IMG/VR virus record: IMGVR_UViG_2534681759_000012
Location: 1-43,160 of that record
DNA from: a virus
Taxonomy: Duplodnaviria > Heunggongvirae > Uroviricota > Caudoviricetes
DNA: 43,160 nt
Reading direction: 5' to 3' (one strand)
Shown: positions 20,383-41,471 of the stretch, piece after piece
Layout: every line of letters starts with the position of its first letter
Numbering within the stretch: the stretch's first letter is position 1
Notes under the pieces: model-generated
Told to the model about the DNA's origin: nothing
Databases searched by the model: none
The model's input: only the letters and a program-made list of their open reading frames with translations
Translations under genes and position numbers: made by a program

Positions 20383-22329
<1,947 letters not shown>

Positions 22330-28847: not shown

Positions 28848-31328
28848 TCAGAATCCTCCTTTCTTCTTGGACTGCGGCTCCTCGCGTTCACGGCGGCGCA
28901 TTTCAGCAGACTGTTGGTCTGTGTCATAAATAGCGCCATTTGCCTGAATGCAATACACCGTGCCGGTATTGCCATGACGATTGAGACGAAGGATTAGTTC
29001 GGTTTCACCAGGTGGAACACTGTCATCAAAAGCACCTTCACGATGGATCCCCACCCAATAATCGCAATCCTGTTCAATCTGCCCTGTATCTCGTGAGTCA
29101 CTTGGTAATGGGCGTTTATTGGTTCGGCTTTCCAGTGCGCGGTTAAGCTGCGTCAGAAGCACAACAACGCAATCAAGCTCTTTGGCAAGGTTCTTCAGTC
29201 CTTTGGTGATCATGCCGTAAGCAAGGTCGTTGCGATCGGCCTTCTCAGCGGTCATTAGTGTCAGGTAATCGACCAGAATCATGCCAACACATCCTTTTTC
29301 TCGCTTGATTCGACGGCTTTCGCTGACGATTTGAGCCAGAGATAATCCCGGCGTGTCGTCGATGTAAAGCATGTCGATTTCACTCAAGCGATTGGCTGTT
29401 TCGATCGCCCTGTTGAAGTCACCATCGTAATCACCCTGATAGCCGTCATCGGCGTCATTTGTCGCCGGAAGGTAAAAAATATTCGGGTTAACACCAGACT
29501 TCTGCCCTACCAGTTTTTCCAGTATCTGGTCACCGGGCATTTCAAGGCTGAACATCAGAGCGGGCTTTTTCTCATGCACTGCGCAGTTGATTGCCATCTG
29601 GCTGTATAGCGTGGTGTTGTGGGTTAGAATGTATCCGTCAGTTGCATACAAATGTCTCTCGTGGGATACCATGATGCAAATGCACTCTTCACGTCCAATA
29701 TACTCAACCGACGTGATAACAGGCGCACTTGTTTTGATGCGTTTTGCAGTGAATTTTTGCTTCAGGCGTGGAGATTTTATGTGTGATAGAACCTCATCAG
29801 GCAACCTGATTGCGCAAATATGGGCATCCATACCTTTGCGCATTTCTCCCTTATAACTGAATTTCGGCTCCTGTTTGGTTGTCATACGACACACGCCACC
29901 AAGAGAATGCACCAGCCGCTTTACACCATCTGACAGGAACTTGCTTGCCGAGCTAAAGCGCAGGGCATTATTTCCTTCAACCCAACCATCGGTTTCAAGT
30001 AATCCGCATAGAACATCAATACGAGTTTGCTTATCAGCAGAAAAAATAATATCCGGGATAATTTTAATCTCTGACATCCGGCCGTAGATACCAAGCCGTT
30101 GCATAACCCGCGTAAGAGATAATTTGCGGCTAAACTTGTGAGATAGGGAGTAATCGCAGCCAGAAACATTTCTGACTTCAATATCGTCACCCACTTCAGA
30201 TCTTACTCGCTCAATGATGTATGGTTCCGTCATGCTGATTCGTGGCGTACCTGCAAGATTTCCATCGCCAAGTAACGCACCTAACAGCCATGGGCTAATC
30301 CCTAAATCAACAGGCAATCCGAAGTCACCGCTAATACCAGGAACATGAATGCGGCTTTGATAGCGAACGCATTCCATCATGTCCCGTAGGCGGCAGGTGT
30401 CTACAACATCAACGCCACCGGTAATACGGTTACTATGAATTTCCCACAAATGATCATCCGCGCAATCAACGGTTCTTCCGTCAGAGAACGTAACTCGGTA
30501 AATATCTCGCTCCCCTTGAGGAAAAACTCCAGACACGAATGATGGTTGTCCATCCACTGATGCTAGGGAATCTCCAACACATACGTCACGAAATGTTGTC
30601 CATGAACCATCAGCAAGCAAAATGCGTGAATTAAGCGGTTGCGCTTTCCCCATCTTAGGGCGAGCGCCAATGACAAACAGAGAGCCTTTCACCAGACCTT
30701 TCGGTGACAGCATCCTGTCCAGCGATGGGATCCCTGTGCTCATTCCTCGTTGTTCGCCTGACGGGTCAAATCGCTTCTCAAGGTCGCTAACCCAGTCTTC
30801 CATGACCTCACCAAATGAACGAAGGCCGCGACGCGATCCGGTTTTTGCATGGTCTGTCAGTTGCGTGAAAATCGACTGAATAGCTTCGTACTTCTGTGTT
30901 GCAGTCATTCCGTTGCGGGAATAGAGCAATTCCGTCGCTTCAGTCATGCGGTTGATGGCGTAGCGTTCCATTGCGGTTTCACGAACCTGCATTGCATAGG
31001 CAACGATGTTTGCTGCGCTTGGCGTGTTCTTTGCGATCTCAGCGATATAAGCAAAACCGCCAACAGACGCCGTTAACGATTTACGCTCCAGTTCATCGAA
31101 AAGCGTCAGGCCATCTACTGGCTTTTGCTCCCGGTGCATTCTGGTTATTTCTTCGAAAAGGATTTTGTGTGGTCGGCTGTAAAATGAGTCAGGCTTCAGC
31201 ATCGCCAGAACTTTCTGGACGCGCTCACTGCAGTCATCATCCAGAAGCAATCCACCAATCACCGCCTGCTCTGCCTCGATGCTATGGGGCGGCGCATAAA
31301 AATTATCGGTCATCGTGTTCACCCTCAC
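28848..31328 (-). CDS. Replicative DNA helicase (DnaB family) interrupted in-frame by an intein
   Basis: 826 aa; DnaB N-terminal domain (PHSIEAEQAVIGGLLLDD...), Walker A split as GARPKMGK / TTLYS by a 343-aa insertion, then DnaB motifs (LVDYLTLM, LLTQLNRALESR). Confidence 0.85.
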   Translation of the reverse strand: MRVNTMTDNFYAPPHSIEAEQAVIGGLLLDDDCSERVQKVLAMLKPDSFYSRPHKILFEEITRMHREQKPVDGLTLFDELERKSLTASVGGFAYIAEIAKNTPSAANIVAYAMQVRETAMERYAINRMTEATELLYSRNGMTATQKYEAIQSIFTQLTDHAKTGSRRGLRSFGEVMEDWVSDLEKRFDPSGEQRGMSTGIPSLDRMLSPKGLVKGSLFVIGARPKMGKAQPLNSRILLADGSWTTFRDVCVGDSLASVDGQPSFVSGVFPQGERDIYRVTFSDGRTVDCADDHLWEIHSNRITGGVDVVDTCRLRDMMECVRYQSRIHVPGISGDFGLPVDLGISPWLLGALLGDGNLAGTPRISMTEPYIIERVRSEVGDDIEVRNVSGCDYSLSHKFSRKLSLTRVMQRLGIYGRMSEIKIIPDIIFSADKQTRIDVLCGLLETDGWVEGNNALRFSSASKFLSDGVKRLVHSLGGVCRMTTKQEPKFSYKGEMRKGMDAHICAIRLPDEVLSHIKSPRLKQKFTAKRIKTSAPVITSVEYIGREECICIMVSHERHLYATDGYILTHNTTLYSQMAINCAVHEKKPALMFSLEMPGDQILEKLVGQKSGVNPNIFYLPATNDADDGYQGDYDGDFNRAIETANRLSEIDMLYIDDTPGLSLAQIVSESRRIKREKGCVGMILVDYLTLMTAEKADRNDLAYGMITKGLKNLAKELDCVVVLLTQLNRALESRTNKRPLPSDSRDTGQIEQDCDYWVGIHREGAFDDSVPPGETELILRLNRHGNTGTVYCIQANGAIYDTDQQSAEMRRREREEPQSKKKGGF
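29616..30644 (-). other. Intein with LAGLIDADG homing-endonuclease motifs inside the helicase P-loop
   Basis: Residues 229..571 of the helicase: starts with Ala (AQPLNSRILLADGSW...), ends ...YILTHN followed by Thr; two LAGLIDADG-like motifs (LGALLGDGNL and LCGLLETDGWVEG); removing it restores GARPKMGKTT. Confidence 0.75.
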
Positions 31329-34587: not shown

Positions 34588-34914
34588 ATGGATGCACAAA
34601 CACGCCGCCGCGAACGTCGCGCAGAGAAACAGGCTCAATGGAAAGCAGCAAATCCCCTGTTGGTTGGGGTAAGCGCAAAACCAGTTAACCGCCCTATTCT
34701 CTCGCTGAATCGCAAACCGAAATCACGAGTAGAAAGCGCACTGAATCCGATAGACCTTACGGTGCTGGCTGAATACCACGAACAGATTGAAAGCAACCTG
34801 CAACGTATTGAGCGCAAGAATCAGCGCACATGGTACAGCAAGCCACGCAGTGAAATGGGTGTGACTTGTGTTGGTCGCCAGAAAATGAAATTAGGCAGCA
34901 AACCACTTATTTGA
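34588..34914 (+). CDS. N: Antiterminator N (lambda-type)
   Basis: 108 aa beginning MDAQTRRRERRAEKQAQWKAANPLLVGVSAKPVNRPILSLNRKPKSRVESALNPIDLTVLAEYH, matching lambda N as recalled; C-terminus diverges slightly. Confidence 0.9.
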   Translation: MDAQTRRRERRAEKQAQWKAANPLLVGVSAKPVNRPILSLNRKPKSRVESALNPIDLTVLAEYHEQIESNLQRIERKNQRTWYSKPRSEMGVTCVGRQKMKLGSKPLI

Positions 34915-36192: not shown

Positions 36193-36504
36193 ATGATGAT
36201 TCTGACTCTGAATGATAAGCGTGAAATATCGCAAATAATCGCAAGTTTTACTGATGAAGATTACGAACGAATCAACAGTGAAGTTGATCGCCTCTGCAAA
36301 CGTTGCGACCCAATAAGCGAAATGCTTCGCTCATATAAACCAGATGAACACACTAAGGACGCTATCGACTGGCTGGAAGATGATGATTGTAACTATCAGG
36401 AAAAAGCCGCTGAATGGTTCTGGGATGCAATAACCGAAAGAGTTAAGGCTGAATATGCCTTCGCAATATTCAAACGCAGACATATTTTTGGAGAAGCAGC
36501 ATGA
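36193..36504 (+). CDS. Hypothetical protein (103 aa) upstream of recT
   Basis: ORF whose stop overlaps the recT start; acidic; no family recognised. Confidence 0.45.
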   Translation: MMILTLNDKREISQIIASFTDEDYERINSEVDRLCKRCDPISEMLRSYKPDEHTKDAIDWLEDDDCNYQEKAAEWFWDAITERVKAEYAFAIFKRRHIFGEAA

Positions 36505-37412
36505 GCAATATCGTTGAATTCGTTAAACAGCAGGAGCAGTTATTCTGCGGAGCATTGACTGAACAGACGGTGACATGGGCTAAGGAAAGCCAGTTTGCAA
36601 TTCAGTATTTCCAGAAAAATGATTACCTGGCTAAAACGGCACTGGCAAATCCAACCAGCGCACAGAACGCCATCATCAATGTTGCGGCGATCGGCATCAC
36701 CTTAAACCCGGCCAGCAAACTGGCTTATCTAGTTCCGCGCGACGGCATGGTTTGCCTTGATATCAGCTATATGGGATTGCTCCATATTGCAATGGAGTCT
36801 GGTGTTATCTCATGGGGTCAGGCAAAACTTGTTCATGCTAACGATACCTATGAGTCAAACGGGCTTGATAAAGCACCAACCCATAAATACAACGCCTTCG
36901 GTGATCGTGGTGATATCGTTGGCGTTTACTGCACAGTTAAGACGCCAGCAGGTGATTATCTAACGGAAGAGATGAGTCTGGCTGAAATTGAGGCTGTAAG
37001 GAAAACAAGCAAGGCAGCATTCAGCGATAAAGGACCATGGGTAAATCACTGGAATGAGATGGCGCGAAAGACGGTCGTAAAGCGTGCAAGCAAGTATTGG
37101 CCTAAGGCATCACGTCTTGATAGTGCTATTCACGTACTAAACGAAGAAGAAGGTGTGTGGACTGAACCAGTTATGCCGCACAAATCAGAGGAAGATATCC
37201 GCGAAGATGAACGGAAACGCCAGCAGGAAATAATGGATAAAGCACAACTTCTTTGCGATGAAATGGCTCAGGCAGAAAACATGGATGATTTGAAGCGATA
37301 TTTTGCAGAAGCATATCGCCTGACATCTGGAATGAAATTGCAGCAGAACGTACAAGCCATTTACATAGAATGCAAAGCGAAACTGGAGGTTGCCAGTGAG
37401 CAAACTGTATGA
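36501..37412 (+). CDS. recT: Single-strand annealing recombinase, RecT family
   Basis: 303 aa; C-terminal core GPWVNHWNEMARKTVVKRASKYWP parallels the E. coli RecT segment GPWVTHWEEMAKKTAIRRLFKYLP. Confidence 0.8.
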   Translation: MSNIVEFVKQQEQLFCGALTEQTVTWAKESQFAIQYFQKNDYLAKTALANPTSAQNAIINVAAIGITLNPASKLAYLVPRDGMVCLDISYMGLLHIAMESGVISWGQAKLVHANDTYESNGLDKAPTHKYNAFGDRGDIVGVYCTVKTPAGDYLTEEMSLAEIEAVRKTSKAAFSDKGPWVNHWNEMARKTVVKRASKYWPKASRLDSAIHVLNEEEGVWTEPVMPHKSEEDIREDERKRQQEIMDKAQLLCDEMAQAENMDDLKRYFAEAYRLTSGMKLQQNVQAIYIECKAKLEVASEQTV

Positions 37413-37878
37413 AATAGCCAATGAATACGCAAAGCTGATGGATTCAGATTTAGAACCAGAGATGATTGCTGACACAATAGAAGGCATGGAAGGAGAATTT
37501 ACCGATAAAATAGAGCAACTTCTCGCCATTATTAAAAATGAATCTGGTTATGCTGAACGCCTCAAGGAAGAGGCAAAGTCACTAAATGAGCGAGCCGCAG
37601 TAATTCAAAATAAGATTGACAGCATCAAATCATATATAGCGTCATCGCTTGAAATGGTTGGCAAGAAAAAGATTCGAGCAGGTATTCACCAGGTAACAAT
37701 CCGCAAACCGTCAGAAACTGTAGAAATCATCGACTCAAGCGCCCTTCCTCCTGAATACGTTGAGTTTGAAACGACAATTAAAGCCGACAAACTGGCAATC
37801 AAACACCAACTAAAAGCAGGAATAAATATCCCAGGCGCTCAACTCAAGGTTGGGAAACCTTCACTTCTTATCAAATAA
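37390..37878 (+). CDS. Siphovirus Gp157-like protein
   Basis: 162-aa helical protein directly downstream of and overlapping recT, the usual pairing for Gp157-family proteins; family assignment from composition and context. Confidence 0.45.
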   Translation: MPVSKLYEIANEYAKLMDSDLEPEMIADTIEGMEGEFTDKIEQLLAIIKNESGYAERLKEEAKSLNERAAVIQNKIDSIKSYIASSLEMVGKKKIRAGIHQVTIRKPSETVEIIDSSALPPEYVEFETTIKADKLAIKHQLKAGINIPGAQLKVGKPSLLIK

Positions 37879-38533: not shown

Positions 38534-39295
38534 ATGATTTGCCTTCACAACGCAGACTGCTTTGACATCTTTCCGCAAATCGCCAGCAACTCCGTAGATC
38601 TTGTATGTGCCGATATTCCATATGGAACAACTCGGTGTCGCTGGGATTCTGTTCTCGACCTGCAGTTGATGTGGAAGCAGATTTACCGTATTTCCAAACC
38701 GAACGCTGCAATTGTTCTGTTTTCCGCTCAGCCTTTTACCAGCGTGCTGATCAACAGCAATCTTCGTGACTGGAAAACAGAATGGATTTGGGAAAAGCCA
38801 CACGCGACAGGATTTTTGAACGCAAAAAAACAACCTTTAAGAGCGCATGAAAATATTGAAGTTTTTTACAGAAAGCAACCGACATACAACCCACAGATGA
38901 CGTATGGGCACGCCAGAAAAACCTCAACAAGAGGTAGGCTGAATACTGATGTATATGGCGATGCGCTGAAAAAGGTCGTTTACGATTCAACAAGTCGCTA
39001 TCCGAGAGACGTGCAGAAATTCTCCAGCGACAAGCAAAAGCAGGCACTTCATTCAACACAAAAGCCACTGGCTCTGGTGAGATATCTGATTGAAACATAT
39101 AGCAATATTGGCGACACAGTGTTGGATTTCACTATGGGTAGCGGAACTACTGGCGTTGCGTGCCAACAATCAGGACGCCGATTTACAGGAATAGAAAAAG
39201 ATCCAGAAATTTTTCGTATCGCATTAGAGCGTATGGGAATTAAACAGGAGCATGCAGCATTGAATTTTGTGGAGACAACCAGTGAACAAGATTGA
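38534..39295 (+). CDS. DNA methyltransferase (beta-class N6-adenine/N4-cytosine type, orphan)
   Basis: 253 aa; motif IV variant DIPY (VCADIPYG) precedes motif I (FTMGSGTTG), the beta-class order; no adjacent restriction gene. Confidence 0.75.
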   Translation: MICLHNADCFDIFPQIASNSVDLVCADIPYGTTRCRWDSVLDLQLMWKQIYRISKPNAAIVLFSAQPFTSVLINSNLRDWKTEWIWEKPHATGFLNAKKQPLRAHENIEVFYRKQPTYNPQMTYGHARKTSTRGRLNTDVYGDALKKVVYDSTSRYPRDVQKFSSDKQKQALHSTQKPLALVRYLIETYSNIGDTVLDFTMGSGTTGVACQQSGRRFTGIEKDPEIFRIALERMGIKQEHAALNFVETTSEQD

Positions 39296-39698
39296 CTATC
39301 AGGCATTGCGTGAGGCAGCAGAGCAGGCAATGCATGACGACTGGGGATTTGACGCGGACCTTTTCCATGAGCTGGTAACACCATCGATTGTGCTGGCACT
39401 ACTGGATGAACGGGAAAGAAACCAGCAATACATCAAACGCCGCGACCAAGAGAACGAGGATATTGCGTTAACGGTAGGGAAGTTGCGCGTTGAGCTTGAG
39501 GCAGAAAAACAGCGGGCAAAGGATCTGTTTATGGAAAATGCTCGGCTTAAGTCAGGTATAGCCGGTCTGATACACCTCGGTATTCGATATGCAGATGTTG
39601 AGGTCATGAGAATTGCTGGAGATGCCCAGCTTTCTACCCCATGCACTGACAGCATCATAAACAGCATTGCAACAGGCATTCGCATCAAAGGAGAGTGA
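39267..39698 (+). CDS. Hypothetical coiled-coil protein (start uncertain)
   Basis: 143-aa ORF from a GTG, overlapping the MTase 3' end; charged heptad-like central region. Confidence 0.4.
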   Translation: MWRQPVNKIDYQALREAAEQAMHDDWGFDADLFHELVTPSIVLALLDERERNQQYIKRRDQENEDIALTVGKLRVELEAEKQRAKDLFMENARLKSGIAGLIHLGIRYADVEVMRIAGDAQLSTPCTDSIINSIATGIRIKGE

Positions 39699-39699
39699 T

Positions 39700-40185
39700 A
39701 TGAGCGCTATAACCAAAGAACGTATCAAATTATTCATTAAAAATCCGCTTGATAACGGACTTACTCGTGGCGAACAAATGGAACTGGCACGAATTGCACT
39801 GGCATCTCTGGAAGCAGAGCCGGTGGCGTGGAAGGTAACCTTCACGCAAATTGACCGTGAATATAACACGTTCACTGGCATGTATCCTGACAAAGCAGAA
39901 GTCGAACGGTGGGTGCGGATGCATAAAGCATGTAATTTTCGGGCAGATATAACACCGCTTTATACCGCCCAGCCAGTGCCGGTAACTCCGGATGGTTGGA
40001 TAAGCTGTAGTGAGCGAATGCCAGATAAGTTAATTCCGGTAATGGTCATGTATGAAGACGGTGAGATGTGGTCTGCAATGTGGAATGGCAATCGCTGGGA
40101 TGATGGCACCGAATATCCGGATCCGCACTCAGTTACGCACTGGCGTGAAATGCCAGCAGCGCCGAAACAGGAGGTGAAGTCGTGA
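39700..40185 (+). CDS. DUF551-like protein
   Basis: C-terminal motif ...SVTHWREMPAAPK resembles the DUF551 signature common in lambdoid early-left operons; start placed at MSAITKER. Confidence 0.5.
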   Translation: MSAITKERIKLFIKNPLDNGLTRGEQMELARIALASLEAEPVAWKVTFTQIDREYNTFTGMYPDKAEVERWVRMHKACNFRADITPLYTAQPVPVTPDGWISCSERMPDKLIPVMVMYEDGEMWSAMWNGNRWDDGTEYPDPHSVTHWREMPAAPKQEVKS

Positions 40186-40394
40186 GCAAGCACATCATCA
40201 AATATGACTATCGAGAGGGAGTTAAACTCCCTAAGCACGAGATTGAGACATGGTGCGGTCATCGGCCAGGGTCATTCGAATGGCTTTTTCAGGATGCTCA
40301 GCATGCGCTATTGAGCATTGAGCAGGGAACGCTGCTTGTTCCTTGCAAGAATTGTCTGGCAGCAATCATCAAAACGGCGCAGGAGGTGAAGTGA
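40182..40394 (+). CDS. Hypothetical protein (70 aa)
   Basis: ORF with start overlapping the upstream stop; two CxxC-like pairs (WCGH...PCKNC). Confidence 0.4.
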   Translation: MSKHIIKYDYREGVKLPKHEIETWCGHRPGSFEWLFQDAQHALLSIEQGTLLVPCKNCLAAIIKTAQEVK

Positions 40395-40672
40395 TGGACT
40401 CCTTCGCGAAATATACGATCATTGACTGGATAGCCTTCCTTCAGGTTTTGCTCATCTGGTTTTATATGGCTTACAGGAGTGGACAGTGGATTGTCAGTGT
40501 AGCCTGTAGCAAGGGATGGCGTTGGTGGAACCGAAAGAATAAAAAAGCGCTGGCCTTGGATTCGTTTTACGAAGCATTCAATCTTAACAGTCTTCAGCCT
40601 GGTTCTGTCGTTGTAGTCACCACTCAAAGCGGCATGACCATTCAGATTCATAAACCAAAAGAGGAAAAATGA
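40394..40672 (+). CDS. Hypothetical small membrane protein
   Basis: Start MDSFAKYT overlaps the upstream TGA (ATGA-type); one hydrophobic helix (IIDWIAFLQVLLIWFYMAY). Confidence 0.4.
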   Translation: MDSFAKYTIIDWIAFLQVLLIWFYMAYRSGQWIVSVACSKGWRWWNRKNKKALALDSFYEAFNLNSLQPGSVVVVTTQSGMTIQIHKPKEEK

Positions 40673-40817
40673 TGTGGCCTATATGTGTTAATTGCAGACG
40701 GATGTGCCTATCTGGATGGTGCCGAAAGTGCGACAAATGCACGAAGCAAAGACAATAACAATCCTCGCACTCGCGGGGATTTCTTTTATCTGAACTCGCT
40801 ACGGCGAGTTTTGTTTT

Positions 40818-41036
40818 ATGGAGATTATTATGATTTTAACAATTAAGCAAATTCACGAATTGGCAATTTTTGCAGGCATGTCATGCAACACACCTGAAGA
40901 AGCTCAGGTGGAAGCTAAAACAGAAATCACGATAGATTCTGGTGATATTCATGATGAAGTAGGATGTGTGATTTATTCAGGTCTACGTGCTCATATTACT
41001 GAATACCCTGAAGAGGGGTACATCGCATTGGAATAG
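40818..41036 (+). CDS. Hypothetical protein (72 aa)
   Basis: ORF preceded by a plausible RBS (GGAGA); acidic; no family recognised. Confidence 0.4.
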   Translation: MEIIMILTIKQIHELAIFAGMSCNTPEEAQVEAKTEITIDSGDIHDEVGCVIYSGLRAHITEYPEEGYIALE

Positions 41037-41182
41037 CTACCGGAGTAACCATGGAATCACGCCGCCTCACACTCGATGAGGCATTTTCATTTATCAAGAT
41101 ATCCAGACCAACCATCGCCGCATCAATGCGGTTTTTTATTGCCTGATTTGCAGGTTCGATTCCATATTCGGAGATAGCACTC

Positions 41183-41383
41183 ATGCAACACGAACTACAA
41201 CCTGATTCACTGGTTGATTTGAAATTCATCATGGCTGATACTGGCTTTGGTAAAACCTTCATCTATGACCGGATTAAGTCCGGCGACCTGCCAAAAGCCA
41301 AAGTTATCCACGGGCGAGCAAGATGGTTATATCGTGACCATTGTGAATTCAAAAATAAGCTCTTAAGCCGCGCTAATGGGTAA
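41183..41383 (+). CDS. xis: Excisionase / AlpA-family DNA-binding protein
   Basis: 66-aa ORF with AlpA/Xis-type HTH signature, last phage gene before the att core. Confidence 0.7.
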   Translation: MQHELQPDSLVDLKFIMADTGFGKTFIYDRIKSGDLPKAKVIHGRARWLYRDHCEFKNKLLSRANG

Positions 41384-41456
41384 AATAGCGGGTAAAATAT
41401 TTTTCACATCTAAAAAACACCATTCCAATCAATCCCCTGCCGCTTCAAGTAGATGT

Positions 41457-41471
41457 CTGCAGGGGACACCA
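41457..41471 (+). other. Prophage att core: 15-bp copy of the argW tRNA-Arg 3' end (attR)
   Basis: CTGCAGGGGACACCA matches the 3' acceptor-stem end of argW as recalled; no upstream T-arm, so a partial copy typical of the distal att site. Confidence 0.65.

Follow-up and report, generated by a model that had tools for sequence, protein, structure and literature searches.

The window analysed in this study, the 43,160 nucleotides (nt) of the IMG/VR virus record IMGVR_UViG_2534681759_000012 (Caudoviricetes), is a single P22-like prophage integrated at argW. Between an orphan DNA methyltransferase gene and the excisionase gene torI it carries six small open reading frames (ORFs), ORF1 to ORF6, which form the distal accessory end of the N-antiterminated early-left (pL) operon and are the counterpart of the lambda exo-xis and P22 ea regions. 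We found that this cluster consists of six independently exchangeable cassettes joined by reused linkers. One of them, ORF5, encodes a peptide of 29 amino acids (aa) that, judging from its sequence and distribution, belongs to a conserved, mobile and essentially unannotated family of microproteins, newly recognised here. The coding linker that brackets ORF3, as well as the family of ORF6 and the fixed slot that it occupies, are also described here for the first time. The products of the cluster probably tune host physiology and the developmental decision of the phage.

Results

Six genes at the distal end of the early-left operon

An initial annotation of the window, made without database searches, had described a dense array of translationally coupled small genes between a methyltransferase gene and xis, in the early-left accessory region of a lambdoid phage. 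Six ORFs are indeed present at this place, all on the + strand:

38534-39295, +: N6/N4 DNA methyltransferase, orphan, directly upstream of the cluster
39282..39698, +: ORF1, 138 aa, Ead/Ea22-like; the longest reading begins at TTG 39267
39700..40185, +: ORF2, 161 aa, DUF551 at the C-terminus
40182..40394, +: ORF3, 70 aa, phrog_4090
40394..40672, +: ORF4, 92 aa, DUF4752
40669..40758, +: ORF5, the 'MWPIC' mini-protein; ATG 40669 gives 29 aa, ATG 40672 gives 28 aa
40830..41036, +: ORF6, 68 aa; a 72-aa reading begins at 40818

The sizes first proposed for the larger genes were 143, about 160, 70, about 92 and 72 aa. Those of ORF2, ORF3 and ORF4 hold (161, 70 and 92 aa), but two starts had to be corrected. 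In the sequence, GGAG stands 7 nt before GTG 39282 and 6 nt before ATG 40830, and these codons are most likely the true starts of ORF1 and ORF6, with products of 138 aa instead of 143 and of 68 aa instead of 72. On public contigs that share this gene order (L184), independent calls give 138, 161, 70, 92 and 68 aa, and a homologue of ORF6 is annotated as a 68-aa protein in RefSeq. Coupling is apparent at the first five junctions, from the methyltransferase gene to ORF5: a 14-nt overlap between the methyltransferase gene and ORF1, a 1-nt gap between ORF1 and ORF2, then overlaps of the GTGA (ORF2/ORF3), TGATG (ORF3/ORF4) and ATGA (ORF4/ORF5) types. It does not extend to ORF6, which is separated from ORF5 by a 71-nt spacer containing two terminator-like hairpins and followed by a 146-nt spacer. 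None of the six is a chance ORF, because the five larger ones belong to conserved families and the 29-aa ORF is under purifying selection. Two further candidates were discarded: the ORF at 41051-41146, ruled out as a seventh gene since it is a ypdJ-type remnant, and an 88-aa ORF on the minus strand (40996-41262), for which no supporting evidence was seen.

The cluster is assigned to the distal end of the pL operon because a repressor gene, an N36-domain antiterminator gene and the RecT and Gp157 genes lie upstream, TorI and attR lie downstream, and a scan of the sequence found no promoter-like site on the + strand within the cluster. The repressor, of the Peptidase_S24 type, is also encoded on the + strand of the early-left region. 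The small genes thus follow the recombination module and precede xis, on the pL strand and after an N-type antiterminator, as in exo-xis and ea regions, and the early-left position first proposed for them is confirmed. The gene called xis in the initial annotation is torI, which marks the end of the operon. The surrounding landmarks are:

1-1152: tyrosine integrase, followed by a P22-type tailspike gene
34588-34914, +: lambda-N-type antiterminator (N36 domain)
36501-37412, +: RecT
37390-37878, +: Gp157
41051..41146, +: ypdJ-like remnant, 31 codons of an AlpA/Xis-type helix-turn-helix (HTH) gene, just upstream of torI
41183..41383, +: TorI excisionase (KplE1/CPS-53 type), named torI in its E. 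coli matches and identified by comparison with K-12
~41457-41471: attR core (pawZ-like argW fragment), followed by cscB

Positions 41064-41471 of the window are 94% identical in DNA sequence to the ypdJ-torI-pawZ (attR) segment of K-12 CPS-53, and at the argW site of csc+ strains cscB would be expected after attR, as found here.

Mosaic construction and shared linkers

Using the 2.5-kb region as a query, parts of it were found in 4520 of 5426 complete E. coli genomes, and 80% or more of it in one place in none. Two kinds of shared linker were recognised, together with the following elements:

40168..40180, +: linker copy 1, CAGGAGGTGAAGT, coding for the '…QEVK' tail of ORF2 and forming the Shine-Dalgarno (SD) sequence of ORF3
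40380..40392, +: linker copy 2, CAGGAGGTGAAGT, coding for the '…QEVK' tail of ORF3 and forming the SD sequence of ORF4
40760..40821, +: two tandem intrinsic-terminator-like hairpins, each with a U-rich tract, beginning 1 nt past the ORF5 stop
41064-41092 and 41117-41142, +: two further terminator-like hairpins, inside the ypdJ-like remnant before torI

The 13-mer CAGGAGGTGAAGT occurs without mismatch in exactly two copies, at the ORF2/ORF3 and ORF3/ORF4 junctions, and the junctions have the general form '…(P/A)Q(Q)EVK-stop / AGGAGG / start'. In related loci the gene upstream of the DUF4752 gene (the family of ORF4) ranges from 70 to 411 aa and has many different N-termini, and it nearly always ends in '(P/A)PQ(Q)EVK'. 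ORF3 looks like a one-gene insertion between linker copies, because it is bracketed by them and carries the tail that is common to the varied upstream genes.

The second shared linker is intergenic and consists of the hairpin segment after ORF5. The tandem hairpins, detected by a terminator scan, have a predicted RNA folding energy of -26.8 kcal/mol (z = -4.6), and their stems are kept in related loci via G-U and compensatory variants. The segment ends in the SD sequence of the next gene, and parts of it are present in 2459 of the 5426 E. coli genomes. From their sequence, these hairpins may act as tL-type terminators passed only by N-modified polymerase. An Rfam search gave sub-threshold chance matches only.

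A family of mini-proteins beginning with MWPIC

The Cys-rich ORF of about 29 aa first noticed near position 40668 is a real ORF. Its consensus is MWPIC-x2-CGR-x-C-x3-WC-x2-CDK, with G and R alternating at the position after the second Cys, and M1, W2, P3, I4, C5, C8, R10, C12, W16, C17, C20 and D21 are invariant. The C5-x2-C8-x8-C17-x2-C20 arrangement is retained in 22 distinct mini-peptides and provides the two CxxC knuckles typical of zinc-ribbon mini-proteins; the family has a fifth conserved Cys in addition to this zinc-ribbon-like C-x2-C-x8-C-x2-C. Homologues with 60-72% identity were detected by tblastn in phages that have no flanking DNA in common with the prophage: Deseoctovirus C1, Skatevirus KFS-SE2, Swiduovirus CF-SP1, ST1UNAM and the 154-kb Citrobacter phage Tr1, in all of which the mini-ORF is unannotated. 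Its carriers are enterobacterial phages and include a 154-kb myovirus and virulent siphoviruses of about 47 kb as well as temperate phages of the P22/lambda type.

We then searched IMG/VR with a degenerate DNA pattern and obtained 85 contigs with 29 unique DNA variants, encoding about 30 distinct peptides of 24-29 aa. The ratio of non-synonymous to synonymous polymorphism (pN/pS), calculated on codons 13-22, which are those that the search pattern leaves unconstrained, is 0.26 in the MWPIC frame versus 1.73 and 1.04 in the other frames. Many codon changes among the variants are synonymous, and the Cys, Trp and Asp residues are invariant across phages without common flanking DNA. As a control, the pattern was run against bacteria represented by one genome per species: 22 of the 23 matches were chance matches without the WC-x2-CDK half, and a single one (Kluyvera) included it. 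The mini-ORF is under purifying selection.

In all cases the start of the mini-ORF overlaps or abuts the preceding stop (ATGA, GTGATG or TGATATG), while the preceding gene varies: it may encode a membrane protein, a zinc finger of the TraR/DksA type, a 200-aa product found in virulent siphoviruses, a DUF4752 protein or a DUF551-type protein. A terminator-like hairpin lies 3' of the mini-ORF in the prophage studied here, in the virulent siphoviruses and in several prophages; when the mini-ORF comes after a TraR-type gene, another gene follows instead of the hairpin. In many IMG/VR contigs (L105, L121, L141, L169, L163, L162, L103, L098) the mini-ORF is located behind a gene for a C4 zinc finger of the TraR/DksA type (about 72 aa), which it overlaps at GTGATG, and in most of these the next gene begins with 'MDYSKLSDFEINK'. 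One contig displays a frameshift that fuses the mini-ORF to the 'MDYSKLSDFEINK' gene, giving a 156-aa product. If the mini-protein acts on a conserved host machine, the transcription apparatus would be one candidate target, because the mini-ORF is often found right after genes for TraR/DksA-type RNA-polymerase binders and right before terminators.

A profile search of the Protein Data Bank (PDB) with the mini-protein returned nothing significant, the best match being the RPC2 ribbon 'VCDKCGLMGYSGWCTTC' with an E value of 0.9. An exact look-up retrieved the 29-aa lambdoid form only, as HK106_030 and under one metagenome label, 'DUF1244'; the mini-ORF is omitted by PGAP, and no report of the MWPIC peptide was found in the literature. 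Two overlapping annotations were rejected, since pN/pS is at least 1 in their frames: a 33-aa frame in Bas106 (L005 2202-2303) and the 79-aa ORF mEp213_028 (L006 3020-3259). One protein cluster at 90% identity places the 29-aa peptide with unrelated TolC-like outer-membrane proteins of 473-480 aa, an artefact that arises when very short sequences are clustered. In the JEP4 copy (L092 1501-1590) three Cys codons are changed (to R, R and F) and the ORF is still open; this copy may be decaying, or there may be a sequencing problem.

ORF3 and ORF6

In Pfam and PHROG searches ORF3 matches phrog_4090 only. Residues W24-C25-G26, D38-A39-Q40-H41-A42 and P54-C55-x2-C58 are invariant or nearly so in 20 homologues, and such conservation suggests that ORF3 probably carries a Cys3His metal site. 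Homologues are carried by virulent Jersey/Kaguna-type siphoviruses, by Klebsiella and Vibrio phages and by jumbo phages, and ORF3 is present in 36 of the 5426 complete E. coli genomes. Its predicted model, with a predicted local distance difference test score (pLDDT) of 87.5, matched no solved fold.

ORF6 encodes an acidic protein (68 aa, isoelectric point (pI) 4.4) with a near-invariant 'EYPEEG' motif in the alignment. The family comprises 4 clusters by word-indexed search and 48 representative clusters by full HMMER search; homologues with 35-84% identity retain EYPEEG, and no Pfam match was obtained. The AlphaFold2 model has a pLDDT of 95.6 and gave no significant fold match in the PDB or BFVD. 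ORF6 is found in 5 of the 5426 E. coli genomes. Wherever it was found, ORF6 or a 72-aa relative is the last gene before the excision/integration module, and at least four different modules are concerned: TorI at argW, Exc with an integrase at torS, an HTH_17 protein with an integrase, and an integrase adjoining proBA. This fixed slot before xis/int is the sole hint to the function of ORF6.

ORF1, ORF2 and ORF4 belong to named families

ORF1 matches PF13935 (Ead/Ea22-like) with an E value of 1.1e-25 (91.2 bits for a cutoff of 27, profile positions 2-139 of 139), as well as phrog_368 and phrog_250. It contains a conserved N-terminal 'NKIDYQALREAAE' segment, a charged centre and a short C-terminal part. 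The central charged region of the Ead/Ea22 family is described as a coiled coil in the family literature. Ea22 of lambda and Shiga toxin (Stx) phages is tetrameric, affects the bias between lysis and lysogeny and favours the latter (PMC10834534, PMC7093339).

The DUF551-like protein reported in the initial annotation is ORF2, whose residues ~100-157 match PF04448 (E 1.4e-17, 64.7 bits for a cutoff of 22, profile 1-68 of 68); it also matches phrog_60. Its N-terminal module 'MSAITKER…ELARIALASLEAEPV' is variable and its C-terminal end is the linker tail 'PKQEVKS'. Among relatives the two modules are discordant, for instance 37% identical in N and 98% in C, or 72% in N and 39% in C: the C-terminal 65 aa can be 97-98% identical in relatives that have 35-37% identity in the N-terminal part, and the opposite pattern occurs too. 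By these comparisons, ORF2 is an intragenic mosaic whose modules reassort independently. Ea22 variant 2 of Stx phages also ends in a DUF551 domain (PMC10834534). In K-12 CPS-53, an oversupply of yfdQ and yfdR together with yfdS (a DUF551 gene) or yfdT inhibits replication initiation, and yfdS mutants are sensitive to H2O2 (PMC4776307). ORF2 has no BLASTP match to YfdS or YfdT at E<0.01.

ORF4 matches PF15944 (DUF4752) with an E value of 3.3e-36 (123.6 bits for a cutoff of 27). It is a basic protein (92 aa, pI 9.6) with a hydrophobic helix at residues ~8-26 (hydropathy maximum of 1.78 at residue 8) followed by a Lys/Arg-rich stretch, and, as predicted from its sequence, probably has an inner-membrane anchor and a C-terminal domain in the cytoplasm. 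It is 97-100% identical across 80 IMG/VR loci. In these loci (L007-L086) the DUF4752 gene is followed by the mini-ORF in about 50 cases and otherwise by an ASCH-domain gene, which begins with a GTG that overlaps a 91-aa variant of DUF4752; in a few loci the ASCH gene is cut to 11 codons by a deletion and joined to the same hairpin linker. No report on DUF4752 was found in the literature.

Database searches with the whole cluster

Profile searches and structure prediction had been proposed as checks on the small genes. PDB sequence and profile searches with ORF1, ORF2, ORF3, ORF6 and the mini-protein produced nothing significant, and the models of ORF3 and ORF6 correspond to no known fold. None of the six ORFs matched in NCBIfam, every PHROG match among them is labelled 'unknown function', and in PADLOC-DB only TorI (mad1 HTH) and the methyltransferase were matched, ORF1 to ORF6 being without a match. 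No ORF of the cluster corresponds to a well-characterised housekeeping phage function.

Other features of the prophage

An element of the IS21 insertion sequence family (20469-22270, +) is inserted among minus-strand genes, between head genes and lysis-like genes; its products are an IstA-like transposase of 340 aa (rve and HTH domains) and an IstB ATPase (260 aa; PF01695, E 8e-112). Because of this insertion the prophage may be defective. The DnaB-type replicative helicase (28848-31328, -) has 826 aa, with the N domain at residues 13-117 and the C domain at residues 572-792, and the ~450 residues between them may be an intein or another insertion. A 441-aa ORF with no Pfam match lies at 1567-2892 (+), in a low-GC stretch (0.34) between the integrase and tailspike genes. 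This interval is a classic position for morons, making the ORF a candidate O-antigen modification or defence gene. In the neighbourhood of the cluster, the orphan methyltransferase is the sole gene with an obvious possible anti-restriction role.

Discussion

Function of the cluster

The explanation that we favour, and consider probable, is that the cluster is a distal, non-essential pL accessory segment built from cassettes, whose products tune host physiology and the developmental decision. The block would be transcribed from pL as soon as the phage infects or is induced. Passing the tandem hairpins after ORF5 would require N-mediated antitermination, so that ORF6 and torI would be expressed only in the N-modified mode. 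The products would be neither enzymes nor structural proteins but small stoichiometric binders that adjust host physiology and the decision between lysis and lysogeny or induction. ORF1 would be an Ea22-type oligomeric coiled-coil protein biasing toward lysogeny. In ORF2, the DUF551 domain could be a common docking module and the variable N-terminal part could confer specificity. ORF3 and ORF5 would be mini metal-binding (zinc) proteins, ORF4 would be anchored in the inner membrane, and ORF6 would be an acidic protein acting together with excision, or just before it. Tuning of host physiology and of the developmental decision is proposed because of the relatives of these genes, Ea22 of lambda and Stx phages and yfdQ/R/S/T of K-12.

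Several points weigh against this interpretation. Its functional part is drawn by analogy from relatives and not from this gene set. ORF1 has no sequence match in the PDB, and its C-terminal part is also unlike that of lambda Ea22. The link between ORF2 and YfdS is a shared Pfam domain, and that with YfdT a 10-residue motif plus the linker tail. Because their homologues occur in strictly virulent phages, ORF3 and ORF5 cannot act solely on the lysis-lysogeny decision. Finally, both termination at the tandem hairpins and its dependence on N are predictions.

The initial annotation had placed the cluster where lambdoid phages concentrate host-takeover and anti-defence genes. The accessory position stands, but the functional label is a generalisation about such regions. 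An anti-defence island seems to us rather unlikely. In that case one or more cassettes would inhibit a host immune system, for example restriction, abortive infection or a CBASS-type system, and an arms race with defence systems would explain why ORF2 is polymorphic and ORF3 and ORF6 are rare. Such a role would fit an early-expressed, non-essential and highly mosaic block adjoining an orphan DNA methyltransferase; related prophages have the cluster beside Abc2 anti-RecBCD and Lar. ORF6 is small and acidic, like many protein inhibitors, and in ORF2 a constant domain is combined with an N-terminal or middle part that is hypervariable. The occurrence of ORF3 and ORF5 in virulent phages also fits counter-defence better than it fits lysogeny genes. 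However, no ORF resembles an annotated anti-defence PHROG or Pfam family, and the models of ORF3 and ORF6 match no known inhibitor fold. In Bas106, which harbours a DUF551/DUF4752/mini-ORF block, AntiDefenseFinder lists only abc2, outside the cluster (PMC11990801 S2 table). A distal position in the operon would moreover be late for first-line counter-defence, and the experiments on relatives concern only the developmental decision and host replication. We conclude that this is an ordinary accessory region, for which an anti-defence role is possible but unsupported.

The DUF4752 membrane protein, with the mini-protein, might instead benefit the lysogen, as a superinfection-exclusion or host-fitness moron. 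The single N-terminal transmembrane-like helix of ORF4 with its basic juxtamembrane stretch, its extreme conservation (97-100% identity in 80 loci) and the terminators downstream of ORF4/ORF5, a frequent trait of morons, are compatible with this idea. We nevertheless consider it improbable: ORF4 is coupled to the upstream pL genes and is preceded by no promoter-like site, and therefore no expression is expected in the repressed prophage; DUF4752 has no PADLOC match, and the mini-protein also follows unrelated cytoplasmic proteins. There is even less reason to regard the small ORFs, especially the 29-aa ORF and ORF6, as leftovers or annotation noise in a decaying prophage. The IS21 insertion, the ypdJ-like remnant, the loss of three cysteines in the JEP4 copy and the omission of the mini-ORF by PGAP could be cited in favour of such decay, which appears highly improbable given the low pN/pS of the mini-ORF in its own frame only, its invariant Cys, Trp and Asp residues, the persistence of EYPEEG in divergent ORF6 homologues with a confidently predicted fold, and the invariance of the putative metal ligands of ORF3 in its 20 homologues.

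For the mini-protein and ORF6 a more specific proposal can be made, which we regard as tentative: MWPIC peptides would form an undescribed family of mobile zinc-binding microproteins (24-29 aa) acting on a conserved host machine and, separately, ORF6 would represent a new fold tied to the excision module.

Comparison with known systems

By its position and its Ea22 gene, the cluster is a further instance of the exo-xis/ea kind, and three of its proteins fall in named DUF/Ea22 families. The exo-xis region of lambda and Stx phages (orf60a, orf63, orf61, orf73, ea22, ea8.5) and the ea region of P22 (eaA-eaI, ead) occupy the same place on the pL transcript, from the recombination genes to xis. They have the same character (short, non-essential, early, mosaic), with an Ead/Ea22 gene in common. 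In contrast to this similarity of layout, the Ea22 family is the only one shared with lambda exo-xis, no Pfam or PHROG match being found to orf60a, orf63, orf61, orf73/TraR or ea8.5. The Ea22-like protein of the cluster is short (138 aa) and has another C-terminal part, and DUF551 is carried by a separate protein. The excision module is also different from that of lambda, being TorI (KplE1 type), with the integrase at the opposite end of the prophage.

The right end of K-12 CPS-53/KplE1 (yfdR-yfdS-yfdT-ypdJ-torI) shares the integration site, the torI/attR DNA (94% identity from 41064) and the ypdJ remnant with the prophage studied here. YfdS is a DUF551 protein, and YfdT has an 'IALxSLExEP' motif resembling that of ORF2 and the same 'QQEVK' tail. 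However, the accessory genes of CPS-53 are not homologous to the cluster at the BLAST level, and ORF1, ORF3, DUF4752, the mini-ORF and ORF6 are absent from it.

The closest known parallel to ORF5 is provided by minimal zinc-ribbon and zinc-knuckle small proteins, such as the ribbon of the second-largest subunits of RNA polymerases (C-x2-C-x8-C-x2-C), which likewise possess two CxxC knuckles 8 residues apart with Gly/Trp beside them; the E value of 0.9 with the RPC2 ribbon indicates a common motif, not homology. Unlike these ribbons, ORF5 stands alone as a peptide of 24-29 aa that invariably begins with MWPI and has a fifth invariant Cys, and its metal binding is predicted. It is rarely annotated because gene callers skip the mini-ORF or, in Bas106, take the wrong frame. 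ORF3 has the same broad distribution in temperate and virulent phages as the mini-protein; ORF6 is rare and always sits in the slot before xis/int. As a small and clearly defined set, these three genes are candidates for function screens. The cluster as a whole changes little in the general picture and confirms that the exo-xis/ea region is freely rebuilt from cassettes.

Boundary sequences have reportedly been described at gene junctions of the mosaic lambdoid phages HK97, HK022 and HK620, and here too short conserved junction sequences flank exchangeable cassettes. The linker of the present cluster differs from them in being partly coding: it specifies a C-terminal tail, supplies an SD sequence with an overlapping start, and its duplicate brackets a single gene, ORF3. 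A shared coding linker of this kind explains how a single gene can be inserted into an operon without breaking translational coupling.

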